From the NCBI GenBank assembly GCA_001779235.1, contig MFJN01000034.1, positions 11,202 to 55,530 on the forward strand: 44,329 nt of DNA, read 5' to 3'. Numbering within the stretch: position 1 is the stretch's first letter; each line of letters opens with the position of its first letter. Made by a program: the position numbers and the translations under genes. The notes beneath the pieces were generated by a model, which saw nothing but the letters and a program-made list of their open reading frames with translations, searched no databases and was not told where the DNA came from. This document shows positions 171 to 32,942 of the stretch, piece by piece. Origin of the DNA: Candidatus Gottesmanbacteria bacterium RIFCSPHIGHO2_02_FULL_40_13. GTDB taxonomy: Bacteria > Patescibacteriota > Microgenomatia > 2-02-FULL-39-11.

Positions 171-3100
171 ATGCCTATAGAAACTGATGCAAGTTTTGGG
201 TTAAAGTCACTGGAAAACCGTGAGCGGAGATCTGAATTGGCAGATGCTATTTTAGCTGAGAAAGACCGCCTTTTAAAAATAGCAGGGCTAAATCAAAATT
301 ATCTGAATGAAGTTCAAAATATCGGGGAACAATACTCATTTTCAGACCCTCAAAAAATTTTAAACGCTGCAAATGAATTAGTTTCTGCTGTTAAAGCCTA
401 TGCGACGATTCACAATCCGAATAATTCCGAAAAGTATTTAGTCGGATTAAATGCAGCAGTTGTTGCCCTGGCTGAGATTCGGATCCTGGGTCCTGAAACC
501 CTATACAAATCTCAGCGGCAACAGCAAGCAGGAGAAGTTAGAAGGGTAGGAATCCAGAAAGAACAGGTGGAAGCCGCATTGGCAATCGAATCCATGGACT
601 CAGCGAAAGTACCAAGTTCGCAGGGTAAAAGCAATACCGCTATACCCATTGCCTCCGTCGTGCGGGCATTATTTACAGGAGAACAGGTTCATATCATGGT
701 GCGGGATCCTCAAGCAAAAAAAAGAGATTCGCAAAATATGAAGCTTCTGACAGAATCTTTAGGTATGAATTTGGGTGTCATAGAGCGGGGTGGAAATCAG
801 GACGAAAAATTATTAAAAAAACAAATTTCTGACCTGATTTTCATCCGGGATATTATCGATTATGCTTCCGGCATATCAGATCATCGAAAAAAGAAATTTA
901 AGGAATTTATCGCAGGACAAATTGACGACTCCGTAAAAAAGTTACATTTTCCCATGATTATTGAGGACGATAAATCACCGGTTGAGAAGGCAGATTCATC
1001 AAAACCGGCAGATATTATTATCGGTGATGACAAAGATTTTGTATTTTCATCAATGACAAGAGATAAAAGATTTATCCGGGAGAAAAGTAATGCAAGTATT
1101 ATTTGTGATGAAGGTGACCTTCCCTGGACTAAAGGCAGCCCCTATGAACTGGAAAATAGAGGCCTGTCTACACTTTCATCATATCTTCCGGAGTGGATTA
1201 CAAACAGCGTTGTTGACGAGGTCTGCCGGGAAATGCAGGATCAGGGGCAAATAATATTAAATAATCACAACGAGTTGGAGTTTGTAGACAGCCGGGGAGA
1301 GGAAACCCATGACATTTACGAGAGACGGTTAAGAAAAAGGCTTGGAGAGGTGACTAAATATGGAAATTTATCCCCGTCCAGCTTAAATGCACTAATAAGC
1401 AGTATAACAACAGAGTACTCCCGTATCATACAAAAGTTAGACGGTATCCCCTTTCCAAATGAGTTCAGGCTAAAGCCCGATAACCTTTTTAAGGATTCTG
1501 CGATGCGAAAACTGGTCAGAAATTTTGCGTATCAGGATGTATCAGCACCTTCAGCCATGCCTGAAGACACTAGTCTGGAGTCTCAAGACCCAATTGCTTT
1601 TTATGATTATGCGTGGTTCACCGCACAGAAGCTTACGCCCGGTATAAACTATTCCCGGTCTGATCAGGAAGTAGTCCTTATCGATCCGGAGACGGGACAT
1701 CCATTGCCCACCCATCAGTATTCCGGTTTGGTCGATATGGCGGTAGATGTGAAGGAAGGCGTATGCAGTTTTAGAGCCAGAAGCGACGAAGTTCTTGATA
1801 GAACAGATTTTCAGATGTTCCTTCAAACCAATTACGGTAAAGGGCACATATCCCTTGTTTCAGCAACACTCGACCATATAAGAGGTGAAGTAGAGGAATT
1901 TACAGGCGGAAAAGTGGCGGAAATCGGTTATTGGATTGGCCGGGAAATGCCGGTTTCTCAAATTGAAATTTCCGGGGATTTTGAAAAAGCTAAAAATAGA
2001 CTTCTCGTATTAGTTCAGGAAGCATCAACATCAGGCAGGCCTGTGGAAATTGTCTGTGACGATGATGAGGAGCTGGGAATTTTAAAACAAATTTTTGATG
2101 AATGGCTTAAAGATAATCCCGAATACCAAGTAAATATGGTTACTTCCAAAAGCAGTTTGGAGTCTGAAGATGAAATATTCGCTCACGCAGGACAATTAAA
2201 CACGATCACTCTTACCAATCCCAGAGGTGGAAGAATGGTGGATATCAAAACATCCCGAGAAACTAACGACGCAGGCGGATTACTGCTGGTTGTCTGGGGA
2301 GCCCTGAAAAATAAGGCGGTTTTACAGCAGGTATTAGCCAGGACAGCCCGAACCGGATCTCCGGGAGAAACACGCTGGATGGTTTATAAACATGGTGGAA
2401 AAGCTGCTCTGGAAAATAATCCCATCGTGAAAAGATATAGGAAACATTTAGATGCATTACAAACACTGCAGGATGGTCAGATGCTTGATTATGATTACAG
2501 CCTGCTGGAGAGTGTTCATGAGCGGAACAATCAGGACGACCGGTCCTTGAGGCTTTTAACCTATGCTTATGACGAAATGAGACAAGCTTTGTATACTGAT
2601 GCCCGTAAAAGCCTGAGGCAGGATATCGGAAGACTTGTGACCCAGGGATATATTGAGGAGTATATTCAGATGAGATGGCACGAGGTAATTGATTTTATAG
2701 CAGACTATTATATCTCACAAGTATCACGGTACAGGATGGATACTCTCGGAGATCTATCTGTAGCCAGAGGAACGGTATTAAGTGATACATATTTCAGAAA
2801 AATGCTGGATAAATATGCCAATACCTTATTAGTTGATTCACATAATTATTATATAAGAGATCCTAAAAGCGGTAAATTACGACCGGGATTTTTAAAACAT
2901 AAAATGCGTCTGGCTCCGGATATAGATACTTATTTACAATTTAAAGAAGAAGAAGAATATAGAAGTATGCTGCAAACGCACCATTTGGGCTTTTTGCCTC
3001 CTGTAAATCTTTTGGAACCCTTACGGGCCGGTTTATATTTCCCCCAAAGTCCGAATAAACTATATATCCTGACAAGATCAATAAATCTTTCTGTTGGCAG

Positions 3101-3305
3101 TCGGGCTAAAACAAGTCCTCACACCAGATACAGTCTGAGAGTTATGTCTTTTGATGACGAAGACCGGTTTGACGGAGACAAGGTGATCACTGTTGCGGAG
3201 AAAGACATCGAAGAATTGTTAAGTCAGGTTTTTTATACACAAAACATAATAAAACAAAAAGCCCTATTTCATGAACTTAGGGAGGCTCACCTGCTGCCTG
3301 CTTGA
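171..3305 (+). CDS. Highly divergent SecA-family (preprotein translocase motor-like) protein, 1044 aa
   Basis: ATG at 171, with TATAAT at 152-157. Collinear matches to SecA motifs as I recall them from E. coli. SSQGKSNTAIPIASVVRALFTGEQVHIMVRDPQAKKRD...LGMNLGVI matches [36 protein letters not shown]...LGLTVGI. KLHFPMIIEDD matches KLHYALVDEVD. DQEVVLIDPETGHPLPTHQYSGLVDMAVDVKEGV matches [34 protein letters not shown] (PPXD). TLTNPRGGRMVDI matches IATNMAGRGTDI. GGLLLVV...LARTARTGSPGETRWMV matches GGLHIIGTERH...LRGRSGRQGDAGSSRFYL. Confidence 0.65.
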   Translation: MPIETDASFGLKSLENRERRSELADAILAEKDRLLKIAGLNQNYLNEVQNIGEQYSFSDPQKILNAANELVSAVKAYATIHNPNNSEKYLVGLNAAVVALAEIRILGPETLYKSQRQQQAGEVRRVGIQKEQVEAALAIESMDSAKVPSSQGKSNTAIPIASVVRALFTGEQVHIMVRDPQAKKRDSQNMKLLTESLGMNLGVIERGGNQDEKLLKKQISDLIFIRDIIDYASGISDHRKKKFKEFIAGQIDDSVKKLHFPMIIEDDKSPVEKADSSKPADIIIGDDKDFVFSSMTRDKRFIREKSNASIICDEGDLPWTKGSPYELENRGLSTLSSYLPEWITNSVVDEVCREMQDQGQIILNNHNELEFVDSRGEETHDIYERRLRKRLGEVTKYGNLSPSSLNALISSITTEYSRIIQKLDGIPFPNEFRLKPDNLFKDSAMRKLVRNFAYQDVSAPSAMPEDTSLESQDPIAFYDYAWFTAQKLTPGINYSRSDQEVVLIDPETGHPLPTHQYSGLVDMAVDVKEGVCSFRARSDEVLDRTDFQMFLQTNYGKGHISLVSATLDHIRGEVEEFTGGKVAEIGYWIGREMPVSQIEISGDFEKAKNRLLVLVQEASTSGRPVEIVCDDDEELGILKQIFDEWLKDNPEYQVNMVTSKSSLESEDEIFAHAGQLNTITLTNPRGGRMVDIKTSRETNDAGGLLLVVWGALKNKAVLQQVLARTARTGSPGETRWMVYKHGGKAALENNPIVKRYRKHLDALQTLQDGQMLDYDYSLLESVHERNNQDDRSLRLLTYAYDEMRQALYTDARKSLRQDIGRLVTQGYIEEYIQMRWHEVIDFIADYYISQVSRYRMDTLGDLSVARGTVLSDTYFRKMLDKYANTLLVDSHNYYIRDPKSGKLRPGFLKHKMRLAPDIDTYLQFKEEEEYRSMLQTHHLGFLPPVNLLEPLRAGLYFPQSPNKLYILTRSINLSVGSRAKTSPHTRYSLRVMSFDDEDRFDGDKVITVAEKDIEELLSQVFYTQNIIKQKALFHELREAHLLPA

Positions 3306-3586: not shown

Positions 3587-3592
3587 AAATCA

Positions 3593-6187
3593 ATGGTAGC
3601 AATTAATGCTATTGAAAACGGTACTACTGCACCAGGGTCTATAATAACAGATATTGCACGTAGTCCTATTGTTGGTTTGGAGGCCTCACATTCTGCTCCA
3701 AATCTAGTAGTTAATTCACACGCATACAATAGAGGAGACGGGTTAAATTCTCCTTTAAACCCCCAGGGAATTGTATTTGAAGGCTTTCAAACCCCGTATC
3801 AAGAAATGAGAAATGCCGCATCCGAAGTCTTACGGGATATGGGTATCAAACATAAAATAGAAAGAGAAGAAATGCTTCGAAGTTTTGATAGATTGCGCGA
3901 GGGAGACGAGAAAGCTGTTGAGGATTTTCAGGCAACGCTTAGCGATTTTCAGGACGGGGTTGTGGATCCGATACTAAAGGGATTGCACGAGGCCGTCAAA
4001 TTTGTAGATGAACAGGCTTTAAATATATTGACTGGGACAGAAATAGGTATAGGAGCGGCAATGGCTGGTTATTTAGCGGTAGATTATCTAAGACGAAGAC
4101 ATGATTTTTCTAGAGTTAAACGTGTGCTAAAACATGATGGGAGTAGAACTGGTTCTTTTCTAAAAGCTTTAGGTATATTAGCAGGATTTAGTGGAATTTT
4201 AGCAGGGTGTACGGGTTTGGTATGGGCTACAACAACTCTAACAGCAGAAGCTCCTCCGACTGCCTCATCTACTCTTCCACCTCCGCAGATAAAAGTAACA
4301 CATAATGCGCCACCTTCCGCCCCGCCTTCGGAGACCCCTTCACCCGTCCCTCCGGAAGATACGCCAATGCCTGAGACAGTAAACGAAGCATCGTATAACG
4401 CTCATGCTCTTTTGGATACCATCCCTGAAGAAAATCATATAGGAAACATTATTTCTAAAGAAAGTATGTCTAGACTTGCAGATGGAAGGGATACACTTAC
4501 CGGCTGGTCTCAAGATGCAGCAAAAGCAAAACTGGCAGAAATGCAGAGTGTTTTAGATAATTTAAATCCAGAATTGGTAAAAGATGAAGCAATTTTTGCA
4601 AAAACTGTATATCTAGTATTGTCAAAAGATGGTAAATATAATTTTATAATTCTGGTAAACGATACAGTTCCAGAGGGAACTATTGCGGGAGATACGTTGT
4701 GGCATTCAGCAACCATGGATGATACTGGTAAAGTAATATTTAGTTTCCAACCAAATGCCAACATGGGTCTTGGTGTTAATAGATTTGGTAATTGGGTTGG
4801 GCCCGGGGGGATAGATGGTAAGGAAACATTTCTTAAGGCAGTTGATCTGACTCCTGTGGGAGGCATCCAAGGACTGCTTGATGGCCGCGGAAGGATTGTT
4901 TTCGATGGTAACGGAATCGCCTATATTGTGGCGCTAAATAAAGATGGACAGGTAACGCAGGTATTTGATGCAGCATCAGGCAGCTGGCTGCCGTCAGAGA
5001 TAGTATTTGTCCCTGAGCCGGTGGCAACTCTCACCAATGAGCAGATTGTTTCCATGGATGATGGGCAAATATTACAGCAAGCGCCACAATTAAATTCAAC
5101 GGAATATCAATTTGATACAGAATTTCCTCTGGTTGCGGATGAGGTGATAAGAGGCGGTGAAGGGGCAAATTACGTGGTTTATAAAGATGAAACAGGCAAT
5201 TACCACCTGGTCTGGAATATAGAGACAGGTGAGGTAAATCACGCGATTTATGCCCCAGCCTATGAAGGTGAAATTGGAGGGGAAGTCCATAAGGGAATAC
5301 CGCTTCTGGTGCTTACAGACAATTCAGTTCTTAAGCCGGAAAACGGCGGGGGCTGGTTTGGTTTAAATCCCGATTACACAGACGCGCAAGCCCGCATAGC
5401 CGAAGCATTTCAGATAGCCTTGGGCATGAGGTATTGGGATTCTAAAATAAAACCGGCCGATAATTTCCCATTTAGCCACGGATTACCGGATTTCAAAGAC
5501 GTCCCCGGTTATGAGACTTTAAAGCAGGAATTAGAGAGATATTTTTCTCCTCCAAATCATGCACCTATACCGCATGAAACTCCAAAATATTTGAGAGTCA
5601 AAATTGCAAATTATTTGAGAGATAAATTTTTGCTGGATTTAAAAACAGCCAAAGAAGAAGGTATGCCTTTTCTAGTCCGCATGAAGGATAAGGGCAGAAC
5701 ATACGCGGATCTGGCAGGTATAAATACCTTTATCATTGATTTTACCGACAGCGGGAAGATGACCTTTCTAGGCGATAACCAGAGAAGGTCTGAAAGTTTG
5801 CTTGCTTATAACAAAATAAGCTACTATTTTATTAGTGCACTAACAGCACCTGGCAGTTTCAGATTAACAGTTGATAATTGGAAATATGACTATAATACCA
5901 ACAGATGGTTTGGCGGTGAGTTTTTAGCTTTACTCAGGTATGCTTTCGCAGGTCAGTATTATGCTGCAGGTGGATATGAACTCGGTCGAAAGTGGGTTCA
6001 AGAATCAAGCAGTGATTTTACACATCAAATCGCAGCCGAAATGCTCTCGGATAAGGTCGTTGCAGATAATCCTGAATTAGCGGAAATATTAGATGATTAT
6101 GCCTTAAGTTACCCGTTTTTATGGTGGGTAGGATACCCGCCTGACTGGTTTACCAACAGCTCGGCAGTACAATTTGTGAAGCCGTAA
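3593..6187 (+). CDS. Large membrane-anchored protein of unknown family (864 aa): about 190-aa N-terminal cytoplasmic part, TM, Pro-rich stalk, about 600-aa ectodomain
   Basis: Long ORF. Strongly hydrophobic segment FLKALGILAGFSGILAGCTGLVWATTTL, followed by APPTASSTLPPPQIKVTHNAPPSAPPSETPSPVPPEDTPMPE. I recognise no catalytic motif. Confidence 0.8.
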   Translation: MVAINAIENGTTAPGSIITDIARSPIVGLEASHSAPNLVVNSHAYNRGDGLNSPLNPQGIVFEGFQTPYQEMRNAASEVLRDMGIKHKIEREEMLRSFDRLREGDEKAVEDFQATLSDFQDGVVDPILKGLHEAVKFVDEQALNILTGTEIGIGAAMAGYLAVDYLRRRHDFSRVKRVLKHDGSRTGSFLKALGILAGFSGILAGCTGLVWATTTLTAEAPPTASSTLPPPQIKVTHNAPPSAPPSETPSPVPPEDTPMPETVNEASYNAHALLDTIPEENHIGNIISKESMSRLADGRDTLTGWSQDAAKAKLAEMQSVLDNLNPELVKDEAIFAKTVYLVLSKDGKYNFIILVNDTVPEGTIAGDTLWHSATMDDTGKVIFSFQPNANMGLGVNRFGNWVGPGGIDGKETFLKAVDLTPVGGIQGLLDGRGRIVFDGNGIAYIVALNKDGQVTQVFDAASGSWLPSEIVFVPEPVATLTNEQIVSMDDGQILQQAPQLNSTEYQFDTEFPLVADEVIRGGEGANYVVYKDETGNYHLVWNIETGEVNHAIYAPAYEGEIGGEVHKGIPLLVLTDNSVLKPENGGGWFGLNPDYTDAQARIAEAFQIALGMRYWDSKIKPADNFPFSHGLPDFKDVPGYETLKQELERYFSPPNHAPIPHETPKYLRVKIANYLRDKFLLDLKTAKEEGMPFLVRMKDKGRTYADLAGINTFIIDFTDSGKMTFLGDNQRRSESLLAYNKISYYFISALTAPGSFRLTVDNWKYDYNTNRWFGGEFLALLRYAFAGQYYAAGGYELGRKWVQESSSDFTHQIAAEMLSDKVVADNPELAEILDDYALSYPFLWWVGYPPDWFTNSSAVQFVKP

Positions 6188-6394: not shown

Positions 6395-6922
6395 ATGAGA
6401 CGAAAATCGGCAATAATCTTTGCCTTCATGCTTCTGGTCACCTCAATACTTGCGTATTTTTATTTTAGGGGAACCTGGTCGAACTGTACTATATCAGTGA
6501 AGTCGGATAAAAATGCACCATATGTAAAGATTGCAGACCGGGATAAATGGCTGGATTTTATAGGCAAATTGGCAGAGTGCCAGGACGGATTTTATCAGGC
6601 ATACAGTGAAAAAGAGCACCTGTTTATTCCGGTCAGGCGTGTAGAGTTTGCGATAGTAAAAGATAGCCAGACAGTGACTTTGAAAGATGCTAGCGGAGCG
6701 CTGTACAGCCGGACTATCGCCATCGACAGGGCGAAAAAACAGGCTGTGGTTTACATCAATATACCTGCGTCTGACCTGGAAAAGTTTAAAAAATATCTGC
6801 ATACAGCCGTATTTCTGAATGCTTACCTGTTATTTCGGGGAAATCCCTATAATACCTACGAGCCTGCGTTAGCGCCATATAAGGATCTGGATGCGCTCGG
6901 CATCTCATATGAAAAGCCGTAA
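6395..6922 (+). CDS. Small N-terminally membrane-anchored/secreted protein, unknown family (175 aa)
   Basis: ATG start. N-terminal MRRKSAIIFAFMLLVTSILAYFYF hydrophobic segment. Its stop (6920-6922) overlaps the next gene's ATG (6909) by 14 nt, suggesting an operon. Confidence 0.7.
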   Translation: MRRKSAIIFAFMLLVTSILAYFYFRGTWSNCTISVKSDKNAPYVKIADRDKWLDFIGKLAECQDGFYQAYSEKEHLFIPVRRVEFAIVKDSQTVTLKDASGALYSRTIAIDRAKKQAVVYINIPASDLEKFKKYLHTAVFLNAYLLFRGNPYNTYEPALAPYKDLDALGISYEKP

Positions 6923-9900
6923 ACCGATACAGGTTTTATTGTTAATTTCAATTTTTATCAGTCTGGGTTTGATTTTTTTGCTAAATCCGCCAAAAACTTC
7001 TGCTCAATCCTGCGGAGGGTATTGGAACTGCTGTATTGGGGGGCTTTGCTGCGATCCGCCTCAATGTACAAGTTATACATGCCATAGTGATTTTCAAGAC
7101 TCCTGTTCAGGAACCACTCAATCCGCATGCGAAGATACCGGTAGCAACAGCTACCCTGACTGTTCTGAGAACGGATACAGTCGATGCGATAATGACCCTA
7201 GCTACGAGCCTGGCGGAGGGCCTGGGTGTACGTGGGATCCTGGTGGGGGTGGTGGCGCTACGAATACTCCAGCAGGCGCCTGGTGTACCGGCGGACATGA
7301 AGATTGTGTTGGCGGAGATCCTGGTGATTCTTGCGGGAACGGCGGCACCTGTCAGGACAATAACAGCGATCACAATTGCGGTTGTGCCGGTGAAACCGTC
7401 CCTACTGATACTCCCACCCCAACACCTACACCTATCTGCCCCTCTATTGGTTCTGTCTCTCCTTCTTCTATTACCAGTGGTACCACTGTTGATATTGCAG
7501 TTACTTACACCGATTTATCAGGCGGGTCAAATATAGATCGGGGTTACCTTGGTTTTAACGGCTGTACCCTGGACCCGGGGGAAGCCTACAACAGCAATTT
7601 TGAGCGGGAACTTGCTAATTATATGGGTATGTTCTATGCTGCCTCAGCAAACTGGGGTGGGGTGGGAACCAATGGAACTGGAGGAGCCTGTTCGCTAGGC
7701 AGCTATGGTGATGACCCCTGGGGATATTTCGGCGGAACAACTATTGGATTTGATAACGCAAATAGCAATTTAACTGTCAATACTGTTTCTACATCAGTTT
7801 CCGGTAATAATCGCACATTCACCTGGAATGTAACTTTGCAAAATAATTTTCCCGCAGGTTCTTATAGTTATTATGGTATGGTTCGGGATGCAGATAATAA
7901 CTACCAAGGTTGCGGTGGAGCCAGATGGACGAAACTTAACTCTCTTCAGGTTATTACTCCCACTCCTACCATTACCCCCACTCGTACACCTACCCCCACC
8001 CGTACCCCTACTCCAACCATTACTCTCACCCCTACTCCAACCATTACTCTCACCCCCACCCGTACGCCTACTCCTTATGTGAATGCTTACTTCAGAAATT
8101 CTGCGGGTTTAACTGTCACTGCCAATGCAGGAGCATATTTCTGGAATGGGGGAAATCGTGTAGATCCCCAATTTAACATATCCGAATATCTTCATCACGC
8201 GAACTATTCTTGGCATACAGAAAAAGGTGTTGGTGTGGATCCGGCAGGAAGTGATATAGTAATTGGTATTACTCCGTCACCTTTAACAGGTACATTGTCC
8301 AATTATACTAATGGAAGTGAATATTGGTGGAGATATCTGTGGCCGTCCTGGAATACCGCAGAACATTCTATTACCTTTATCATTGCATCCCCAACTCCTA
8401 CTCCTACCCCCACCCGTACCCCTACTCCAACCATTACTCCCACCCCTACTCCAACCATTACTCTAACCCCTACAGTTACTCCAACCGTTACTCCCACTCC
8501 CACCCTGACCCCGACCCCGACTTTTTATAATCTTTACGGCTGGATTTATACGGAAACAAACAACGCGGTCGTCAGAAGTGAGGAAGCTTCGGAAGGATTG
8601 CTTCCCGGTTATACCGTGGATCTGACAGGCGACGAAGAGCGTACAACTATCTCACAAGGCTCACCGATTGCCGGATTTCTGGCTAATTACATCTTTACTC
8701 CTCTTTATAATGGTACTTATGAGGTTCAGATGCCTATAACTCCAACCGATTCAGTGCTTTTCCCGAGATATACAAATCCTAAAATAGCGATTATAGCCGG
8801 TGGAGATGTTATTGCTGACTTTCCTTTTATCACGATTACGCCATACCTGAGTCCTACCTCCACGCCTACCGCCACGCCTACTTCTACTCCGCCTCCAATC
8901 ACCCCTACTCCTACTTCTTTATGGTCACCGACCCCGACTGTCGGGTCCGGAACCCCTACTCCTACTTCATATCCATGCCAGACACTGCCTACACCTATTC
9001 TGAACGCACCTTCGCATCTTTTATGTACCAATATCAAACCGGCTTTTTCAGCCTATGTATCAAATCCCAATAACGATAATGTCTGGGCACATTTCTACAG
9101 CAATTATTATGAAACATTCAGCAGAACAGGATCGGTAGTAAGCCCCTCCGGAGGAAATAGTATCTGGACGCCGGACGGATCTGTGCTGAACACTACCGGA
9201 GGCTACTGGTGGACGGCTTATACGGAAAGTTCTTCCTGTCCGCGCTCATTTGATGCCCCCGCCAACCTGCTGAATATGGATTATACTCCTCCGCCCAAGC
9301 CCCAGGCTCCCGTCTGTACTATTACTGACCCGAATTTATATTCCGGCCTATGCGCATTGCATTGTGAATGGGAGGCTGATCCGGAGCCGGTTCCTCCTAC
9401 ACCGACTCCTCCTTCCTGCAGTGATACCGGTGATTATCACCCTATTTTCAGATCTTACGGAGGTCCGGGAGTTGTAGATCCTCCAGGCTGGATCGGAAAT
9501 GTATTATTTGTGGATGTTGAGGCTGAGGCTGGGCAGGAATTGTATGCGAGTGTGGAGGCCAGGGACGGCCTTGGCAACACATCATTGCCTTCAGATGAGG
9601 CCGGCCCGTATACGTGTGAGGAAATCATCTTTCCCGTATCTCCTACTCCCGGCGGACCGACCCTGACCCCCACCGGTAGCCCTCCGCCGACAGCTACTCT
9701 CACACCGTCAATCACGCCTGTCCCGTCTCCGGAAATCTGGTCGCAGGTTTTCGGCGGAGACGTCTATGAACCATCACTTCTGCAAAGTAATCTTCCCTCA
9801 GGAAAATATTATTTAGATGACATATCACTTTTATTCCCTAATAGCGCCGGAGTGCTGTGGTCGGGTTCCGGCGCAGGTGATTTCGGATACGGTACCTCTT

Positions 9901-10454
9901 CGCCGACGAATTGGCAGGTAGCGTCCACTCTTTCCAACGCTTTCAACTTTTCCTATTACTGGGAATCTTTGAAAAACAATCCTGATGTTGTTACTGTACC
10001 AAATACAACCACTATTCCTTCTTCTGATATAGTCGCAGACAAATCTATATATTATTATAATCAGGCGTTGATATCTTTGAATTCAAATCTTACTTTAATG
10101 CCGTCGGGTAATGTGGCAATATTCTTAATCTCAGGTTCACTGAATATTAAAAATAATTTTACAGTTACCCCGGACGAGTCAGTAGTGTTTGTGGTGAACG
10201 GTAATATTGAGGTGGACAGCAATGTGACCCGTGTCGACGGACTTTTTATCGACAGCGGAACATTTTCAGTTGCAACCGGCCCGGATCCGCTTGTCATCAA
10301 CGGAATGGTTTATACCGGGGAGATGAGTTTAAACAGGACTTACAAAAGTTTTTCCGCACCAACCTATAAATTTATCTACCAGCCGAAATACGTGATAGCA
10401 TTATTGCCGTATCTTGGCAGGCCGCAGATTAATTGGCAGGAGGGAGGACCATGA
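6909..10454 (+). CDS. Giant secreted surface protein: signal peptide, 18-Cys N-terminal module, several domains separated by (T/P)n linkers, C-terminal about 330-aa domain
   Basis: MKSRKPIQVLLLISIFISLGLIFLLNPPKTSAQ looks like a signal peptide. An alternative ATG lies at 6891. There are 18 Cys within about 130 aa (SCGGYWNCCIGGLCCDPPQC...NCGCAGE). TPTPT-type linkers are encoded at about 7950-8080, 8390-8520, 8860-8960 and 9640-9730. The stop TGA (10452-10454) overlaps the ATG of the PilX-like gene (ATGA). Confidence 0.85.
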   Translation: MKSRKPIQVLLLISIFISLGLIFLLNPPKTSAQSCGGYWNCCIGGLCCDPPQCTSYTCHSDFQDSCSGTTQSACEDTGSNSYPDCSENGYSRCDNDPSYEPGGGPGCTWDPGGGGGATNTPAGAWCTGGHEDCVGGDPGDSCGNGGTCQDNNSDHNCGCAGETVPTDTPTPTPTPICPSIGSVSPSSITSGTTVDIAVTYTDLSGGSNIDRGYLGFNGCTLDPGEAYNSNFERELANYMGMFYAASANWGGVGTNGTGGACSLGSYGDDPWGYFGGTTIGFDNANSNLTVNTVSTSVSGNNRTFTWNVTLQNNFPAGSYSYYGMVRDADNNYQGCGGARWTKLNSLQVITPTPTITPTRTPTPTRTPTPTITLTPTPTITLTPTRTPTPYVNAYFRNSAGLTVTANAGAYFWNGGNRVDPQFNISEYLHHANYSWHTEKGVGVDPAGSDIVIGITPSPLTGTLSNYTNGSEYWWRYLWPSWNTAEHSITFIIASPTPTPTPTRTPTPTITPTPTPTITLTPTVTPTVTPTPTLTPTPTFYNLYGWIYTETNNAVVRSEEASEGLLPGYTVDLTGDEERTTISQGSPIAGFLANYIFTPLYNGTYEVQMPITPTDSVLFPRYTNPKIAIIAGGDVIADFPFITITPYLSPTSTPTATPTSTPPPITPTPTSLWSPTPTVGSGTPTPTSYPCQTLPTPILNAPSHLLCTNIKPAFSAYVSNPNNDNVWAHFYSNYYETFSRTGSVVSPSGGNSIWTPDGSVLNTTGGYWWTAYTESSSCPRSFDAPANLLNMDYTPPPKPQAPVCTITDPNLYSGLCALHCEWEADPEPVPPTPTPPSCSDTGDYHPIFRSYGGPGVVDPPGWIGNVLFVDVEAEAGQELYASVEARDGLGNTSLPSDEAGPYTCEEIIFPVSPTPGGPTLTPTGSPPPTATLTPSITPVPSPEIWSQVFGGDVYEPSLLQSNLPSGKYYLDDISLLFPNSAGVLWSGSGAGDFGYGTSSPTNWQVASTLSNAFNFSYYWESLKNNPDVVTVPNTTTIPSSDIVADKSIYYYNQALISLNSNLTLMPSGNVAIFLISGSLNIKNNFTVTPDESVVFVVNGNIEVDSNVTRVDGLFIDSGTFSVATGPDPLVINGMVYTGEMSLNRTYKSFSAPTYKFIYQPKYVIALLPYLGRPQINWQEGGP
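7993..8056 (+). repeat. 64-bp direct repeat, copy A (linker-coding), 62/64 identical to copy B
   Basis: cccccacccgtacccctactccaaccattactctcacccctactccaaccattactctcacccc. It contains an internal tandem of acccctactccaaccattactct. Confidence 0.9.
8407..8470 (+). repeat. 64-bp direct repeat, copy B
   Basis: Differs from copy A at two positions only. The offset of 414 bp (138 codons) keeps it in frame. Confidence 0.9.
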
Positions 10455-11365
10455 TTATGAAAATCCAAATTACTCCGCCAAAGGCGGATCAGCCTCTGGC
10501 TGAAAATTTCAAATTCCAAATAAACAGGAAGAATTATATAACCCGCGATAAATCAGCAGGTCAAATAGTATTGATACTGGTTCTAATTACCGTAGTTGGT
10601 TTGACTATCGGATTATCCCTGATTTCCAGGTCGGTGACCGACGTCAGAATATCATCGCAGATTGAAGAATCAAGCAGGGCCTTTTCAGCGGCAGAGGCAG
10701 GTGTGGAAAATGCCTTAAAGATCATTAATGTATTCCCGACTGACACGCCTCAATCCATCACCCTGGATAATGCTTCAGCAGAATACACAGTTTCCGATAT
10801 AGGAGGCAGCAACAGTCTTTACTCCTTCCCTGCGACCGAAGCCAATTCATCACAGATCCTCTGGCTGGTGAATCATGATTCTGACGGAGGCTTGGGTATA
10901 GCCTATTATTCTAAAACAGATTCACTGGATATTTGCTGGGGTATAGCCGGAAATAATGCAGCTATTGAGTTTAGCCTTTATTATAAAACCGGCTCAACAT
11001 ATAAAATCGCCAAGTCTGCTTATGATCCGGATATTTCCCGCGCCGGCAATAATAAATTTAACCCGGCTGATACAGATGGTAGTTACTGCGAAAGTATTTA
11101 TCCGTATAAACATACGATCAACTTTATTACTGATTTTGGAGTTTCGGAGGCTGATAATTTATTGGCTCTGCGAATGACACCGGTTTATGAGAATACTGCA
11201 ATAGGCGTCAAACCCACTGAGAATTTGCCCGTCCAGGGAAATCAAATAAATTCCGTGGGTAAAACCACTACGGGGGTAGTACGAAAAATTCAGGTGAACA
11301 AGACTTACAGTATCTTGCCGGGGTTATTGGACTTCGCTTTGTATTGCGAATCCAACTGCCAGTAA
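10451..11365 (+). CDS. PilX-like type IV pilus-associated protein (PilX_N-type N-terminus)
   Basis: GGAGG at 10444-10448. ATG at 10451 (ATGA overlap with the upstream stop) or at 10457; the ORF-track start 10433 is TTG. The TM helix GQIVLILVLITVVGLTIGLSLI followed by SRAFSAAEAGVENAL is typical of the PilX N-terminal domain. There is no G/FTLxE prepilin cleavage motif. Confidence 0.6.
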   Translation: MIMKIQITPPKADQPLAENFKFQINRKNYITRDKSAGQIVLILVLITVVGLTIGLSLISRSVTDVRISSQIEESSRAFSAAEAGVENALKIINVFPTDTPQSITLDNASAEYTVSDIGGSNSLYSFPATEANSSQILWLVNHDSDGGLGIAYYSKTDSLDICWGIAGNNAAIEFSLYYKTGSTYKIAKSAYDPDISRAGNNKFNPADTDGSYCESIYPYKHTINFITDFGVSEADNLLALRMTPVYENTAIGVKPTENLPVQGNQINSVGKTTTGVVRKIQVNKTYSILPGLLDFALYCESNCQ

Positions 11366-12545: not shown

Positions 12546-13118
12546 ATGGTCAAAAAAAGTATCAATTTACTGATCGAGAAAGAATTGGATTCACTGCTGG
12601 TTGCCAAATTAAAACACTACCTGCCTGTTGCCGCAGCTGTCTGTTTTATACTTTTTATCATCCTTTTTATAGTATCGATCACCATTACGAAGAAAAATCT
12701 GGCCCAATATAATACTCTTAAAGAAGAGGTAAACAAAATCGAAAATAAAATAGATGAAAAGCAAAATCTTGAGGGAGTTTATACTCTCAGCTACAGCATT
12801 TTAAAAATCATAAATGAGATTACCGGTAATAAAGTAAATTTTACCCCGCTGCTCGCTTCGGTTATAAAAATAAACTCAGATGACCTGTCATTAACCAAGG
12901 CTATGTCTGATGACAAAGGCCTGGTAAATTTCAGCATCAGCGCTTCGTCATCGGCAGCCCTCAATAATTTGGTTTCTTTTCTTCATGAAAGGGAAGATAA
13001 GGATAAAATATTTTCCGCCATTTATGCCCACCGTGCCACCAGAAATACAGACGGAGGATATCAGATATCTGTTTCTTTCAAAGCAGACGAGTCGCTTTAT
13101 CATGAAAAAACCAATTAA
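12546..13118 (+). CDS. pilN: PilN-like pilus assembly protein
   Basis: N-terminal SINLL motif (the PilM-binding INLLP-like motif), a single TM, a coiled-coil region, and its position after pilM. Confidence 0.7.
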   Translation: MVKKSINLLIEKELDSLLVAKLKHYLPVAAAVCFILFIILFIVSITITKKNLAQYNTLKEEVNKIENKIDEKQNLEGVYTLSYSILKIINEITGNKVNFTPLLASVIKINSDDLSLTKAMSDDKGLVNFSISASSSAALNNLVSFLHEREDKDKIFSAIYAHRATRNTDGGYQISVSFKADESLYHEKTN

Positions 13119-26022: not shown

Positions 26023-27264
26023 TTAAAAGCTTCGCTTTTTTACGTTCCACCATAACTCTATTCTATCAAAAGATTTATTAATTGCATCTTCCGGCGATCC
26101 GAAGGAAAGTCTCAGGTGGTACTCTCCTTCAGGCCCGAAACCGATACCCGGAACGGTGACGACAGCAGCTTCATAGAGTAATTTTTTAGCGAATTCAATA
26201 CTGCTTATCGGCAGGTTGTAGCGTGGAAAAACATAATAGGTACCACAGGGCTTTACATAAGAAAAAAGATCAGGCAGGTTGTCCAGTCGTTTACAGATAA
26301 TATCGCGGTTGCGTTTTAGCCATTTTCTATGATTATTAACTACTCCCTGCGGACCGGTCAACGCGGCGATCGCTGCCTCCTGGGATATATGCGGTGCGCA
26401 AACGATGTTGGCGTCATGAATTTTTAAGATATGCATCAGCAATTTTTTATTAGTATGAAGGAATCCTATTCGCCATCCCATCATACCGTATTTTTTTGAC
26501 AGGGAACAGCATCTGATGACCCTGGGCCAGAGTTTTTTTATCGAAGCAATATTAAAATATGAAGTATCATCATAAATGAGAAAATCATAGACTTCATCGG
26601 TAATGACATATATTTTAGTCTCGTATAAGATCTCTGCGAGACTTCTAAGGTCTTCTTCCAAAAAAACGGCGCCTGTCGGATTCTGGGGATTATTTATCAC
26701 GACTGCTTTAGTTTTTTTAGTGATGGCCTTTTTAATATTGACAACATCTAAACGGTAACCTGTTTTTTTATCTTCAATCATGGGAACAGGAACCGCGATA
26801 CCTCCGGCGATTGATACCTGCTCGCCGTAGGATGAAAAATAAGGAGAGGGTAAAATAACCTCATCACCGGGATTAACCAAAGTCAGCATTGAATAGAGTA
26901 GTCCTGCCATACTGCCGGGAGTTATCAGAATGTCATCGGAGGAGGTTTCAATTCCCAGTAATTTTTGTGAAAGCGCAGCAGTTATGGTGCGAAGTTCAGG
27001 CAATCCTGTCAGAAGTGTGTATTTATCAATATCTTTTTTATTTTTTATTGCCTTGATAGCATGCTGGTGAATAAAGTCTGGTGCGGGATAAAAAGGAAGT
27101 CCTACCCCGAGCGATACTATGTCTTTACCTTTATTCTGTTCCAGTGCGCCAAGATATGTCATTTCCTTAATGACGGAAACACTGGTATTTTTAAGCCTTA
27201 CTGCGAGCTCCGGCAAATCGACGGTGTCGCCTGTTGAAGTTAGAACCGATCTGTTGTTGTTCAT
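26023..27264 (-). CDS. Class I/II PLP-dependent aminotransferase (likely the aromatic/phenylpyruvate aminotransferase of the operon)
   Basis: NPQNPTG, SLSKKYGMMGWRIGF (PLP lysine). 4-nt overlap with the aroC stop. The substrate assignment comes from context only. Confidence 0.8.
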   Translation of the reverse strand: MNNNRSVLTSTGDTVDLPELAVRLKNTSVSVIKEMTYLGALEQNKGKDIVSLGVGLPFYPAPDFIHQHAIKAIKNKKDIDKYTLLTGLPELRTITAALSQKLLGIETSSDDILITPGSMAGLLYSMLTLVNPGDEVILPSPYFSSYGEQVSIAGGIAVPVPMIEDKKTGYRLDVVNIKKAITKKTKAVVINNPQNPTGAVFLEEDLRSLAEILYETKIYVITDEVYDFLIYDDTSYFNIASIKKLWPRVIRCCSLSKKYGMMGWRIGFLHTNKKLLMHILKIHDANIVCAPHISQEAAIAALTGPQGVVNNHRKWLKRNRDIICKRLDNLPDLFSYVKPCGTYYVFPRYNLPISSIEFAKKLLYEAAVVTVPGIGFGPEGEYHLRLSFGSPEDAINKSFDRIELWWNVKKRSF

Positions 27265-28427
27265 AAGTTTCTTAGGTTACCTAGGTAACTTAAGTAATTC
27301 CCATTAATTTCTGCCATCGAGTCACCGCCAAACTTTTCCAAAAAAGAATTGGCCAAAACAAACGACAGCATCGCCTCAGAAATAACTCCGGCGCGTGGAA
27401 TGACGCATATGTCAGACCGTTCAAGCAAGGCTTTGGCGGCTTTCTTTGTTTTTAAGTCAATTGTATTCAGAGGACTTCCGAGTGATGATAGAGGTTTATG
27501 ATACACTCTGACGACTACATTTTCTCCATTGGTAACCCCCCCTTCCAGACCTCCGGCACGGTTTGTTTTTCTCCTGATATTATGACCGTCAGAAATTATT
27601 TCATCATGAACATCAGAGCCAAGATCAGAAGCGTTGGCAACTCCTGTCCCTATTTCGACTGCCTTGACTGAAGGAATGCTCATCAATGCTCCGGCAATCA
27701 ATCCGTCGAGTTTCCGGTCATAATGTACATAACTTCCAAGTCCGGCAGGTACCCGGGATGCGATAACTTCAATGACCCCTCCTAAAGTATCTTTACTCAT
27801 CGTAGCATCAATAATCGCTTGTTTCATCCTTTTAGAAGTGTTCATCTCAATGCATCTGATGTCTGGATCTGTCTGATCGACGCTGACGATTTTGTGAAAA
27901 TCCCGCTCTTCTGCTTCCAGTATAACTTTGCCGATTTGTACCGTGTGGCTAGCAATCAGCATTTTAAATTCAGCCAGCAGTTTTTTGCATATTGCCCCGA
28001 CAGCCACCCGCATTACCGTTTCCCGTGCGCTGGCTCTTTCCAAGACGCTGCGCACATCGTCAAAGTGATATTTGATTACTCCTGCCAGATCGGCATGACC
28101 CGGCCTGGGGTTGGTTAAGTGTTTTAGCTTTACACCCTCGGATGTTAAGGGTTCAATACTCATTTTTTCATTCCAATTATCATGATCCATATTATCCACC
28201 AGAAGCGCAATCGGACTTCCCAAAGTTTTACCATTCCTTACTCCGGAGAGGATTTTTACTGTATCAGACTCTATTTTTCCACGCCCCCCCCGTCCTGCTC
28301 CGGATTTACGTTTCTCTAGCTCTTTTTGTATATCGTGGTGAACAAGTGATAATCCAGCGGGTATCCCCTCTAAAATAGCAACTTCAGCCGGTCCATGTGA
28401 TTCTCCTGCAGTTAAAAACCTAATCAT
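27261..28427 (-). CDS. aroC: Chorismate synthase
   Basis: MIRFLTAGESHGP..., GRGGRGKIES..., RSDICVIPRAG. Confidence 0.95.
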   Translation of the reverse strand: MIRFLTAGESHGPAEVAILEGIPAGLSLVHHDIQKELEKRKSGAGRGGRGKIESDTVKILSGVRNGKTLGSPIALLVDNMDHDNWNEKMSIEPLTSEGVKLKHLTNPRPGHADLAGVIKYHFDDVRSVLERASARETVMRVAVGAICKKLLAEFKMLIASHTVQIGKVILEAEERDFHKIVSVDQTDPDIRCIEMNTSKRMKQAIIDATMSKDTLGGVIEVIASRVPAGLGSYVHYDRKLDGLIAGALMSIPSVKAVEIGTGVANASDLGSDVHDEIISDGHNIRRKTNRAGGLEGGVTNGENVVVRVYHKPLSSLGSPLNTIDLKTKKAAKALLERSDICVIPRAGVISEAMLSFVLANSFLEKFGGDSMAEINGNYLSYLGNLRNL

Positions 28428-28442
28428 ATGATTATTAGAAGT

Positions 28443-29273
28443 TTAAGGAATTGATTCATTAATGTTTTTTAAAGCTTGTTCCATTATTCTAACCGGAGGG
28501 TCGATTCCGGTGAACATTTTAAATTTTAACACAGCCTGCCAAAAAAGCATTCTTTCTCCATATACTAATTTACTTTGCATTTCTTTAGCGTTTACTAATA
28601 ATTTAGTTTCTTTAGGATTAGTAACAAGATCCATGACAGTTAAGTCTGAGCGCAATAAACCTTTTGGAACAAGTGATTGATTTTCATTCGGCTTCATTCC
28701 GACTGATGTAGCATTGATTAAAATTTCTGCTTGTTCAATTTCTTGAGCAAGAGATTGTATAGAATTACTTCTGGCATTTATTTTTCTGGTAATTTGTTTG
28801 GCGAGGTCTGCATTTCTATTTAGAATAATTAAATTTCCGCCTTCATCCGTCACCGCAATGGCGATTGCCCGGGCTGCCCCGCCGGCACCCAGTAATAATA
28901 CATTTTTATTTTTTATAACGGTTACTTCGTTTAACGCTTTGACACAACCTAATCCGTCGGTATTGCCACCGCTTAATTTACCGTTGTCATTAACTATGAC
29001 GTTTACCGCACCAATTATTTGAGCATTTTCGTCAAGTTCATCAAGATATTTTATTGCCTCGATTTTATACGGAATAGTGACACCCACCCCTTTTATTCCC
29101 AGTTGGCGAATTCCCTCAATTGCCTTTTTCAGATCTTTTACCGCAAAAGGAACATAGACATAATTGAGTTGTAAAGCTTTAAAAGCAGCATTGTATAAAG
29201 TAAACATTTTGCTTGTTTTGTATGTTGAACCGAAAAACCCGATTATTTTTGTTTCTCCGTTTATTTTCATCAT
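28443..29273 (-). CDS. aroE: Shikimate dehydrogenase
   Basis: GVTIPYK, NTDGLG, LLGAGGAARAIA (NADP Rossmann). Confidence 0.92.
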   Translation of the reverse strand: MMKINGETKIIGFFGSTYKTSKMFTLYNAAFKALQLNYVYVPFAVKDLKKAIEGIRQLGIKGVGVTIPYKIEAIKYLDELDENAQIIGAVNVIVNDNGKLSGGNTDGLGCVKALNEVTVIKNKNVLLLGAGGAARAIAIAVTDEGGNLIILNRNADLAKQITRKINARSNSIQSLAQEIEQAEILINATSVGMKPNENQSLVPKGLLRSDLTVMDLVTNPKETKLLVNAKEMQSKLVYGERMLFWQAVLKFKMFTGIDPPVRIMEQALKNINESIP

Positions 29274-29311
29274 TATAATTTTACTTCATTACTATATATT
29301 AATGTAGTAAA

Positions 29312-29848: not shown

Positions 29849-29856
29849 ATTTCTAA

Positions 29857-31152: not shown

Positions 31153-31153
31153 A

Positions 31154-32682: not shown

Positions 32683-32942
32683 ATCAACTCCTGCTTATCT
32701 CTGGATATCAGAATAATTAATTTAAAGATTTTCAAAATTATTCCATTATTTAAATTCAATAATTTGCATCTATCTTTAACTTTTATTAAAATTTCTTTTT
32801 CTCTTTTTAAGTCGATCAGTCTCAGGTTGTTATTTATTTTATTATTTCCTGCCAGTACTGCCAGATCCAGCCTTTTTTTAATAAGCTGAATAATATCTTT
32901 ATCGATCTTGTCTATTTCTCTTCTAATTTCTTCAAGATTCAT
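32679..32942 (-). CDS. Chorismate mutase (AroQ class, monofunctional)
   Basis: LEEIRREIDKIDKDIIQLIKKRLDL is typical of the CM_2 helix 1. About 87-93 aa, with ATG at 32942 or 32960. Confidence 0.85.
   Translation of the reverse strand: MNLEEIRREIDKIDKDIIQLIKKRLDLAVLAGNNKINNNLRLIDLKREKEILIKVKDRCKLLNLNNGIILKIFKLIILISRDKQELI

Follow-up and report, generated by a model that had tools for sequence, protein, structure and literature searches.

The large gene and its pilin-like neighbour

The window, a 44,329-nucleotide stretch of DNA from an uncultured Gottesmanbacteria-type (CPR/Patescibacteria) bacterium, carries one very large gene directly ahead of a minor-pilin-type gene and the pilM-N-O genes. 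The open reading frame of the large gene spans 6891..10454 on the forward strand; the ATG at 6909 (MKSRKP...), which gives a product of 1,181 residues, is more probable as the start, since a signal peptide begins with it. Upstream lies an ORF of 175 residues that matched no known family and whose 3' end runs 14 nt into the large gene. No PilI/PilJ-type partners were identified within the window.

6395..6922, + strand: 175-aa ORF preceding the large gene; single membrane helix at the N-terminus
6909..10454, + strand: large gene, 1,181 aa, stop TGA at 10452-10454
10435..10448, + strand: purine tract GGCAGGAGGGAGGA, whose Trp-Gln-Glu-Gly-Gly codons double as the Shine-Dalgarno site of the next gene
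10451..11365, + strand: PilX-like minor-pilin-type gene, 304 aa
11513..12541, + strand: pilM (PilM_2, E 7.9e-56)
12546..13118, + strand: pilN-like gene, assigned by position and a single membrane helix
12985..13830, + strand: pilO (PilO, E 1.6e-7); coordinates are those of the listed ORF, the true start probably lying further downstream

The product of the gene downstream of the large gene is pilin-like by sequence and predicted fold, and is a candidate PilX/PilK-type minor pilin. It has a 37-aa leader ending in Gly, followed at a G|Q site by a hydrophobic helix (QIVLILVLITVVGL...), and lacks Glu5 (QIVLIL after the Gly), as do GspK/PilK/PilX-type tip subunits. The AF2 model combines a 57-residue N-terminal helix with a beta head (pLDDT 87.6). 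A match to PilX_N is weak (E 8e-4; at 19.8 bits it falls short of the 25.5 cut-off), and a Foldseek search with the model gave no convincing bacterial minor-pilin (GspK/PilX) match. Among its 353 homologs, those that are named belong to Gottesmanbacteria or Patescibacteria; two were named PilX by JGI and one has a precomputed PF14341 match.

The two genes meet at ...TGG CAG GAG GGA GGA CCA TGA, where the ATG occupies 10451-10453 and the TGA 10452-10454. This is exactly the overlap of stop and start that the original prediction had described, and ATGA or GTGA overlaps occur at 7/10 junctions among the Gottesmanbacteria-type loci compared below. These overlaps, together with the Trp-Gln-Glu codons that form the Shine-Dalgarno site, suggest that the large protein and the PilX-like protein are co-translated. 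The overlap of that site with the codons confounds the signal of Trp-Gln-Glu conservation that the Gottesmanbacteria loci show.

Architecture of the large protein

The large protein is divided as follows (all on the + strand).

6909..7004: Sec-type signal peptide, aa 1-32, read from sequence; cleavage probably between TSA and QS
7005..7388: Cys-rich head, aa 33-160, 18 Cys, 37.5% G+D+N
7389..7442: T/P linker 1, aa 161-178, from sequence
7443..7946: module A, aa 179-346, variable; one family match (P0086) and a weak MBG_3 match
7947..8075: T/P linker 2, aa 347-389; imperfect 6-24-nt DNA tandem repeats
8076..8387: module B, aa 390-493, variable; four family matches besides the window's own fragment P0001
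8388..8522: T/P linker 3, aa 494-538, from sequence; DNA tandem repeats
8523..8846: module C, aa 539-646, where the conserved base starts; weakly SdrD_B-like (E 0.098)
8847..8966: T/P linker 4, aa 647-686, from sequence; DNA tandem repeats
8967..9374: module D, aa 687-822, best conserved module
9375..9416: P-rich linker 5, aa 823-836, from sequence
9417..9638: module E, aa 837-910, belongs to the conserved base
9639..9728: T/P linker 6, aa 911-940, from sequence
9729..10451: C-terminal beta-solenoid domain, aa 941-1181 (AF2); family signature
10416..10451: terminal peptide ...LGRPQINWQEGGP, the most conserved and least confidently modelled block; proposed docking strand

Type IV pilins carry a class III signal, a short leader that ends in Gly and precedes a hydrophobic helix, usually with Glu5. 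The large protein begins MKSRKPIQVLLL..., an n-region (MKSRK) followed by 19 hydrophobic residues and the A-x-A type cleavage site at TSA, QS; with no Gly ahead of the hydrophobic stretch, it was rejected as a type IV pilin. A bacterial lipoprotein was also rejected, since a lipobox was defined as [LVI][ASTVI][GAS]C directly after the hydrophobic region and ...NPPKTSAQSC has Lys at -6 and its Cys 9 residues past that region. Other N-termini of the protein family described below carry A-x-A followed by Cys at a varying distance (0-3 residues later, also given as 1-4 after A-x-A), and such close spacing fits signal peptidase I rather than a lipobox. These features support a large protein that is modular, non-pilin and probably secreted by a Sec-type route.

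The head contains exactly 18 Cys, at residues 35-159 and thus right after the signal peptide as had been claimed; residue 177 is a 19th Cys, and the protein in full has 30. Against a background of 0.61% Cys in 25 other ORFs of the window, the probability of at least 18 in 125 residues is ~1.6e-19. The further idea of a disulfide-knotted head survives as regards Cys richness, and disulfides may well hold this region together; a conserved 'knot' does not, for the head has no Pfam match and no BLAST homolog (E <= 1e-3) among 153 family proteins compared. The three closest relatives bear N-terminal modules unlike those of the window protein. Judged by these comparisons, the head is one of many interchangeable heads. 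Earlier work had already described large Cys-rich exported proteins from CPR genomes (PMC4736985).

At least five globular modules split by T/P linkers had been noted, and six modules follow the head, with six linkers; the T/P linkers are encoded by imperfect 6/12/18/24-nt tandem repeats. Family matches grow more frequent toward the C-terminus, with 0 for the head and 1 to 4 for modules A and B, while the conserved part is made up of modules C, D and E together with the C-terminal domain. Module D is 50-76% identical to its full-length matches among family representatives.

The last ~330 residues had been described as beta-rich, which is correct in character and too generous in length: a confident beta-solenoid (AF2 pLDDT 91.6, pTM 0.88) occupies the C-terminal ~240 residues, from EIWSQ at aa 942. 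In the model the only helices are short ones at domain residues 79-86 and 224-228, and there is no Cys in the last 241 residues. The suggested comparison with PilY1 turned out negative. A PilY1-type propeller was rejected, as the model is a beta-solenoid and Foldseek returned no PilY1, and no Pfam or NCBIfam match to PilY1/Neisseria_PilC was found in the large protein. The only Pfam signal of the domain was DUF7305 (PF23981; E 7.5e-4). Membership was rejected at 19.9 bits, under the gathering cut-off of 27, with only profile positions 50-110 of 185 covered; still, 4/56 family members match DUF7305 at E <= 1e-3 (best 1.8e-6), which suggests that the domain is a distant relative.

Structural matches are weak overall (TM 0.33-0.47). 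The best are DUF3494 (IBP-1) beta-helices (prob 0.87-0.99, E 7e-3 to 0.1, TM 0.34-0.47), a fold that consists of a right-handed triangular beta-helix and a long flanking alpha-helix; no Pfam sequence match to DUF3494 was found in the domain. Among PDB matches linked to pili, ComZ (6qvi) is weak (E 0.07-0.3, TMq 0.33-0.47) and the tapirin C-terminal domains far weaker. Tapirins are Caldicellulosiruptor proteins encoded by a type IV pilus locus; their beta-helix (4wa0, 6n2b) was rejected as a match at E 1.7-3.4, prob <= 0.06 and TM <= 0.2. The original prediction had named an unrelated enzyme as the finding that would speak against it, and no catalytic family was matched by sequence for this domain.

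The domain ends in W-Q/K/R-E-x-x-P. These last six residues are its most conserved block (3.26 bits per position versus 1.0-2.5 elsewhere) and also have its lowest model confidence (pLDDT 63-72), as would be expected if the peptide folds only on a partner. Neither DUF3494 nor DUF7305 accounts for the terminal W-x-E-x-x-P peptide.

Gene order and the wider family

The C-terminal domain marks out a family, as yet uncurated, that comprises at least 1,447 representative protein clusters (E <= 1e-3) and is apparently centred on Microgenomates/CPR; its named members are Gottesmanbacteria or Microgenomates. In nearly all listed matches the domain lies at, or a few residues from, the C-terminus. Members span ~100-2,720 aa and share an architecture that starts with a signal peptide, in many cases followed by a Cys-rich head, continues with variable modules of adhesin type (CARDB, fn3, Laminin_G_3, CBMs, VWA, dockerin) and closes with the domain at the extreme C-terminus.

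The large gene lies directly 5' of a PilX-like gene in 10/10 distinct Gottesmanbacteria-type loci (the window, L001, also fetched as L006, L002, L007, L008, L009, L010, L013, L014 and L015). The pilM-N-O genes follow in nine; the L008 contig ends after the PilX-like gene. Across the loci with coupling the identity of the C-terminal domain drops to 31-38%. In the reverse direction, all three PilX-like homologs examined (43-46% identity) have a family member immediately upstream. More distant family members (L003, L004, L005, L011, L012 and L016) keep the W-x-E-x-x-P tail, and 0/6 have adjacent pilin or pilM genes. Homologs consistently unlinked to pilus genes had been named as counter-evidence to the original prediction, and the outcome is divided in this way between the two groups.

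The Gottesmanbacteria region is syntenic throughout, down to trmD-rpsP-rnc, so part of the pilus linkage may reflect inherited order rather than selection. The gene 5' of the large gene varies, being Wzy_C in relatives and a SecA-like cluster in the window. Among the distant loci, a MerR/HTH_17 gene neighbours the family member in three, with rplJ/rplL also close by in two of the three, and in two loci the family member is clustered with LPxTG proteins. Small membrane-anchored ORFs occur directly 5' of the family member in L003, L011 and L012, overlapping its start in L003 and L012; no sequence homology was detected between them and the 175-aa ORF of the window.

Possible role and relation to known systems

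We put at roughly 0.5 the probability that the large protein is an adhesin, not itself a pilin, whose C-terminal peptide docks on the PilX-like minor pilin, and that it works in the manner of PilY1/PilC or MshQ with an unrelated fold. The protein would be a Sec-exported modular surface protein made together with the PilX/PilK-type minor pilin. After export, its conserved base (modules C, D and E and the beta-solenoid) would stay bound to the minor pilin, probably by the invariant C-terminal peptide (...NWQExxP) adding a beta-strand to the pilin head, and the resulting complex would occupy the tip of a type IV pilus assembled on the PilM-N-O platform. The 18-Cys head, presumably disulfide-held, and modules A and B would form the distal end. 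There the T/P linkers may act as stiff, possibly O-glycosylated stalks that hold out the variable N-terminal modules as the ligand- or host-binding end.

The main alternative, which we consider possible and somewhat unlikely, is that the solenoid and its W-x-E-x-x-P tail form a lineage-wide module for envelope retention or sorting (to the wall, an S-layer or another anchor) with diverse passengers, and that adjacency to pilus genes is inherited synteny with no physical link. The 1,447 representative clusters with highly diverse passengers and lengths of ~100-2,720 aa would suit such a module, as would the six unlinked non-Gottesmanbacteria loci, the broad synteny of the Gottesmanbacteria region and the status of large Cys-rich exported proteins as a known general CPR feature (PMC4736985). 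It fits less well that lineages with only 31-45% identity between their C-terminal domains have retained the overlap with the PilX-like gene while the upstream gene changes, and that no SLH, LysM, LPxTG or CWB wall-binding domain was detected in the large protein. The polarity might also be reversed, with an uncleaved N-terminal anchor and a distal solenoid that binds a glycan or surface, or cleaves polysaccharide, like tapirin or DUF3494-type beta-helices. The 19-residue hydrophobic segment is long enough to span a membrane, and the closest structural matches of the solenoid, DUF3494 ice-binding proteins (prob 0.99) and, weakly, the tapirin C-terminal domains, are beta-helices that bind surfaces. 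We nevertheless judge this arrangement improbable: family N-termini have classic A-x-A cleavage sites with the first Cys close behind, a hypervariable N-terminus is to be expected only where that end meets the target, and the TM-scores are 0.38-0.47 with no catalytic family matched by sequence. It would be very surprising if the protein were cargo, released by the type IV filament machine working as a T2SS-like secretion piston. The gene for a secretion substrate often lies next to those of its machine, and no obvious anchor accompanies the Sec signal of the protein; however, CPR cells are generally considered to have no outer membrane to cross, and both translational coupling specifically to a tip-type pilin and the conserved terminal peptide fit docking better.

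A broader version of the docking hypothesis covers the whole family, including members far from pilus genes: interchangeable, hypervariable and often disulfide-rich heads would all be mounted on type IV pilus tips by one shared kind of solenoid and W-x-E-x-x-P strand. We regard this extension as doubtful. Were it true, the C-terminal domain would be a general pilus-docking adaptor of CPR bacteria, and host or substrate recognition in CPR episymbionts would depend on the variable heads, determinants that have long been sought.

As a pilus-tip adhesin analogous to PilY1/PilC, the role first proposed, the protein retains its secreted, non-pilin, modular nature and its conserved coupling to a pilin-like gene, and its C-terminal domain is not of the propeller type. 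It resembles PilY1/PilC in being a large (~1,000-1,200 aa) non-pilin with a Sec signal, beside a gene for a PilX/PilK-type minor pilin, here a candidate one (the PilX-like gene is adjacent in all ten Gottesmanbacteria-type loci), and in the polarity of a variable N-terminal and a conserved C-terminal part. The last ~10 residues of PilC/PilY1 dock by beta-strand complementation of a pilin (10.64898/2026.02.14.705861), and the extreme C-terminus that serves as docking strand there is the most conserved segment of the window protein. The systems differ in fold (seven-bladed propeller versus beta-solenoid), in gene order, which in the window is adhesin then pilX-like, and in host, here a CPR bacterium presumably lacking an outer membrane.

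In the Vibrio MSHA pilus, MshQ, ~1,200 residues long and not a PilY1 homolog, is encoded beside a PilK homolog that its C-terminus is so far only predicted to strand-complement (bioRxiv 10.64898/2026.02.14.705861), which implies that unrelated large proteins can fill a PilY1-type role; its likeness to the window protein is one of description, with no sequence relationship detected and no direct comparison made. ComZ of Thermus thermophilus is a pilus-tip-associated protein that contains a large beta-solenoid (PMC6561018). Unlike the window protein, which has no pilin N-terminus, ComZ is a pilin whose fold carries the solenoid as an insertion, and its function is in DNA uptake. The DUF3494 (IBP-1) likeness is a structural match only (prob up to 0.99, E 7e-3; TM 0.38-0.47), with no sequence match. 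Large, signal-peptide-bearing, very Cys-rich and strain-variable proteins of Peregrinibacteria and other CPR were proposed to act in attachment, with no shared C-terminal domain or pilus linkage reported (PMC4736985); their description there is by composition only. In Saccharibacteria, PilX1 and PilX2, which mediate host binding, are candidate tip adhesins of CPR type IV pili (PMC11623550). These are large minor pilins with accessory lectin-like domains that unite pilin helix and adhesive domain in a single protein, whereas the window splits the pilin part and the presumed adhesive part between two genes that are translationally coupled.

Modular layout of the large secreted protein

The large gene (6909..10454, + strand) is a single open reading frame encoding 1,181 aa. 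An alternative in-frame ATG lies at 6891, but the ATG at 6909 is the likelier start because it opens a typical signal peptide. Judged by its sequence (MKSRK, 19 hydrophobic residues, then ...TSA/QS), the N-terminus is a Sec-type signal peptide and not a prepilin signal, which was rejected on that account; a lipoprotein N-terminus was likewise considered and rejected. The original prediction of a head with 18 Cys after the signal peptide holds precisely: exactly 18 lie in residues 35-159 (P ~1.6e-19 by chance, against a 0.61% Cys background from 25 other window ORFs). Gly, Asp and Asn together make up 37.5% of this head, and the last 241 residues of the protein are free of Cys. The predicted modular arrangement on T/P stalks is also found, with six T/P-rich linkers and, after the head, six globular modules (A-E and the C-terminal domain). 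Linker DNA consists of imperfect tandem repeats of 6-24 nt.

Modules of the large protein, with matches among 153 proteins sharing its C-terminal domain (window protein and its fragment P0001 left out of the counts)
Head: 0 matches
Module A, residues 179-346: 1 match
Module B, residues 390-493: 4 matches
Module C, residues 539-646: 13 matches
Module D, residues 687-822: 15 matches, identity 50-76%
Module E, residues 837-910: 16 matches
C-terminal domain, residues 941-1181
T/P linkers, residues 161-178, 347-389, 494-538, 647-686, 823-836 and 911-940

The full protein has no match in Pfam, NCBIfam or PHROGs, and module-by-module Pfam searches gave only sub-threshold matches to MBG_3, SdrD_B and DUF7305. 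The sole match in a PDB sequence search is to a T/P linker (8zvk), and a PDB profile search found nothing better than E 0.35. With the linker-free protein as query, a word-indexed homolog search returned three close relatives, including P0001, and its profile version returned 12; the family becomes visible only with exhaustive HMMER searching. Two relatives, P0002 and P0003, have modules C, D, E and the C-terminal domain in common with the window protein, but their N-terminal modules, which contain Cys and are fn3-like by sequence inspection, are entirely different. Together with the module match counts, these differing N-termini indicate a conserved C-terminal base carrying a swappable N-terminal business end. 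As its sequence features are confirmed, the original description is correct apart from two adjustments: the C-terminal region, put at about 330 aa, is 240 aa when counted from EIWSQ, and the Cys-rich head is not a conserved element, having no homolog among the 153 family proteins compared.

A family defined by its C-terminal domain

An exhaustive HMMER search with a three-sequence profile of residues 941-1181 yielded 1,447 representative clusters at E <= 1e-3, 254 of them at <= 1e-10. In nearly all of the 150 matches listed, the domain lies at the C-terminus or a few residues from it, in proteins of about 100 to 2,720 aa. The signal peptide of a typical member contains an A-x-A site and very often leads straight into a Cys-rich stretch; 33 of 73 full-length members have at least 12 Cys within the first 150 mature residues, and the median Cys count of the C-terminal domain is 0. 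Passenger domains include CARDB, fn3, Laminin_G_3, CBMs, VWA, dockerin and HINT. A second family copy inside the window was considered and rejected.

The AF2 model of the C-terminal domain (43-sequence alignment; pLDDT 91.6, pTM 0.88) confidently predicts a beta-solenoid with two short helices. Foldseek against the PDB gave only weak matches, the best to DUF3494 ice-binding-type beta-helices (E 7e-3, probability 0.99, TM 0.38-0.47), followed by ComZ of Thermus (E 0.07-0.3), a tip-associated pilin with a beta-solenoid inside; tapirin C-terminal domains scored far weaker than both. The PilY1 propeller is absent from these PDB matches, the sole Pfam signal is DUF7305, below threshold, and a viral fold library gave nothing significant. 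Across 43 diverse sequences, the most conserved block is formed by the last six residues, W-Q-E-x-x-P, at 3.26 bits per position compared with 1.0-2.5 elsewhere, and its Trp is invariant. The last 20 residues of the domain have the lowest model confidence (pLDDT 72 and 63).

In many members, including P0024, P0025 and P0052, the domain is represented by its last ~115 residues alone. At one relative locus (L007), the domain is divided between two consecutive ORFs (2-1720 and 1713-4523): the first covers profile positions 1-98 and continues into unrelated sequence with an assembly gap, while the second has a signal peptide of its own and covers positions 101-239. On this sequence evidence, the split and the short members define a half-domain subtype.

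The family is large, lacks Pfam and NCBIfam coverage and has a signature that is easy to search for. In the literature we found no published description of it or of DUF7305, nor of the terminal motif or its fixed coupling to a PilX-like gene. Large Cys-rich exported proteins have already been noted in CPR (PMC4736985), and in Saccharibacteria large minor pilins have been put forward as tip adhesins of CPR pili (PMC11623550).

The PilX-like gene and its neighbourhood

Window genes discussed here
171..3305, + strand: SecA-like ATPase, 1,044 aa, very divergent (SecA_DEAD E 6e-5)
3593..6187, + strand: 864-aa membrane protein (helices in the central part, one P/T-rich stretch) with no relatives and no family match
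6395..6922, + strand: 175-aa protein with a single membrane helix, its stop overlapping the large-gene start by 14 nt; no family match
10451..11365, + strand: PilX-like gene, 304 aa (PilX_N E 8e-4, weak and below the Pfam cut-off)
26023..34763, - strand: shikimate and aromatic amino-acid biosynthesis run

The PilX-like leader ends in Gly, followed by QIVLILVLITVVGL..., and position 5 is not Glu. Of its 353 homologs, those with names belong to Candidatus Gottesmanbacteria or the Patescibacteria group; JGI calls two of the homologs PilX. In the confident AF2 model (pLDDT 87.6), a disordered leader precedes a 57-residue N-terminal helix and an all-beta head, the predicted 'lollipop' shape of a pilin. 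A Foldseek search gave the head no place among minor pilins of known structure (TM <0.2); the most probable matches are archaellins, at very low TM-scores. The leader before G/Q(I/V)(V/I)LILVL varies from 6 to at least 37 aa (window 10451..10564; L001, L007-L010, L013), and the protein has a conserved C-terminal tail of its own, LPxLLDFxLFxEN, modelled with low confidence (pLDDT 44-57).

As predicted, the TGA of the large gene (10452-10454) overlaps the ATG of the PilX-like gene (10451-10453). The last codons of the large gene, TGG CAG GAG GGA GGA, form the Shine-Dalgarno site of the next, and this role and the stop/start overlap place the stretch under two constraints. The Trp-Gln-Glu codons TGGCAGGAG serve doubly in the same way at relative loci (window 10434..10454; L001, L007-L010, L013). 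Because they do so in Gottesmanbacteria, a caveat for the tip-adhesin reading, the independent evidence for selection on the peptide itself comes from distant members with no gene downstream. An ATGA or GTGA overlap occurs at 7 of 10 junctions, and spacers separate the two genes at L014 (31 nt) and L015 (17 nt). At L002 the junction is apparently frameshifted, with CCATCATAA in place of CCATGA (7600-7664), and the large-gene ortholog is broken by an assembly gap, seen as a stretch of N (4514-5721).

Downstream of the PilX-like gene follow pilM (E 8e-56), a pilN-like gene and pilO, and then trmD, rpsP, rnc, nusB, recG and other housekeeping genes. The large gene is followed by the PilX-like and pilM-N-O genes in the window and at L001 (the same locus as L006), L002, L007, L009, L010, L013, L014 and L015; at L008 the contig ends past the PilX-like gene. 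As read from sequence, the linkage is exceptionless among these Gottesmanbacteria-type loci, across which C-domain identity to the window falls to 31-38%. A narrow-alignment genome scan returned four loci; since L013-L015 were found starting from PilX-like homologs, the linkage test is reciprocal. At L001, L002 and L013, the PilX-like gene and pilM have between them a gene for a single-helix protein of 134-152 aa (14250-14654, 8431-8889 and 7928-8335, respectively); the window has none, the gap being just 147 nt.

The gene upstream of the large gene varies, being Wzy_C in seven distinct relative loci and a SecA-like cluster in the window.

Wzy_C genes immediately upstream of the large gene
L001, 8224-9957
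L002, 2954-4483
L009, 5900-7639
L010, 6568-7932
L013, 1036-2826
L015, 2647-4524
L014, 2939-4645, - strand

Wzy_C, which the window lacks at that position, is a membrane protein of O-antigen-ligase or PglL-TfpO type and could serve as an O-oligosaccharyltransferase acting on the T/P linkers or the pilins. Two genes ahead of the large gene sits the SecA-like ATPase, with accessory SecA2 among its best matches in NCBIfam and the PDB (E 1e-12 to 1e-16, far under family cut-offs). By analogy with the accessory SecA2 systems of Gram-positive bacteria, which export glycosylated serine-rich adhesins, it could conceivably have a dedicated role in export. Small membrane-anchored ORFs also directly precede family members at the distant loci L003, L011 and L012; in a test for conserved partners, neither the small ORF nor the large upstream protein of the window showed homology to those loci. 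Elsewhere in the window, the aromatic run encodes DAHP synthase, DHQ synthase, shikimate dehydrogenase, EPSP synthase, chorismate synthase, prephenate dehydratase and an aminotransferase, above the usual biosynthetic capacity for a CPR genome.

Six distant loci (L003, L004, L005, L011, L012, L016) contain no pilin or pilM genes within the available DNA. L003 (Microgenomates group), L005 and L016 adjoin a MerR/HTH_17 gene just downstream on the opposite strand, L003 and L016 additionally have rplL or rplJ-rplL close by, L011 and L012 sit within secreted-protein clusters including LPxTG-type proteins, and the neighbours of L004 are uninformative. Downstream of the family member, L011 (10261-12083) and L012 (10906-12686) encode a secreted protein rich in Cys that ends ...IAP, along with one that has a sortase signal of LPxTG type (LPRTG or LPPTG) ahead of a membrane helix. 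Two record labels look wrong: the L001/L006 contig CAYIFB010000001.1 is titled 'uncultured Gammaproteobacteria' yet is syntenic with Gottesmanbacteria loci, and a P0137-cluster member is annotated Candidatus Bathyarchaeia, yet L016 has a bacterial secE-nusG-rplK-rplA-rplJ-rplL cluster.

A candidate pilus-tip adhesin

By analogy, we give roughly even odds (about 0.5) that the large protein is a pilus-tip adhesin working like PilY1, PilC and MshQ and built on a beta-solenoid. The original prediction of a tip adhesin functionally analogous to PilY1/PilC and of a new type is retained at these odds; its dependence on linkage to pilus genes is borne out in the orthologous group and fails in the wider family. 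That failure, in the six unlinked distant members, together with the breadth of passengers, lends some weight to a rival reading, in which the domain is a surface-protein module general to CPR and lies beside pilus genes through inherited synteny, a possible but clearly less probable account given that the overlap with the PilX-like gene persists while the upstream gene varies. A reversed polarity, in which the N-terminus would stay uncleaved as an anchor and the solenoid would be the distal binding or lytic domain, is improbable in view of the A-x-A sites and N-terminal hypervariability, and we would be surprised if the large protein were cargo of the filament machine. In a tip adhesin, the presumably disulfide-bonded head would be held out by the T/P stalks, whose O-glycosylation is possible, as the adjacent Wzy_C gene of relatives hints.

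Attachment to other cells is the way of life of cultivated CPR/Patescibacteria, in which type IV pili are implicated in host finding. Saccharibacteria excepted, few specificity-conferring molecules of CPR are known. The locus offers a concrete candidate for host specificity, a non-pilin with swappable Cys-rich heads tied genetically to a tip-type pilin.

Work from 2026 demonstrated that in PilC/PilY1 the last ~10 residues add a beta-strand to a PilK/PilX-type minor pilin, which licenses assembly of the tip complex and keeps the adhesin on the tip; it predicts the same docking for the unrelated MshQ, of ~1,200 residues and encoded beside its PilK homolog (10.64898/2026.02.14.705861). Should such docking apply here, the strand-complementation rule of PilC/PilY1, MshQ and CpaL would reach a third, unrelated fold and CPR bacteria, and likely host-recognition proteins of uncultured bacteria could be listed by genome survey; if not, the domain would still be a new C-terminal module common to many CPR surface proteins. 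The tip adhesin is favoured because the pair follows the same logic as PilC/PilY1/MshQ: a large Sec-exported non-pilin with a variable N-terminus and conserved C-terminus, an invariant peptide at its very end, ill-defined in the isolated model, and translational coupling to a Glu5-less pilin-like protein heading a pilM-N-O operon. Unlike PilY1, the large protein has no propeller, its C-terminal domain being a predicted beta-solenoid, and the likeness is one of working mode and not of PilY1 membership.
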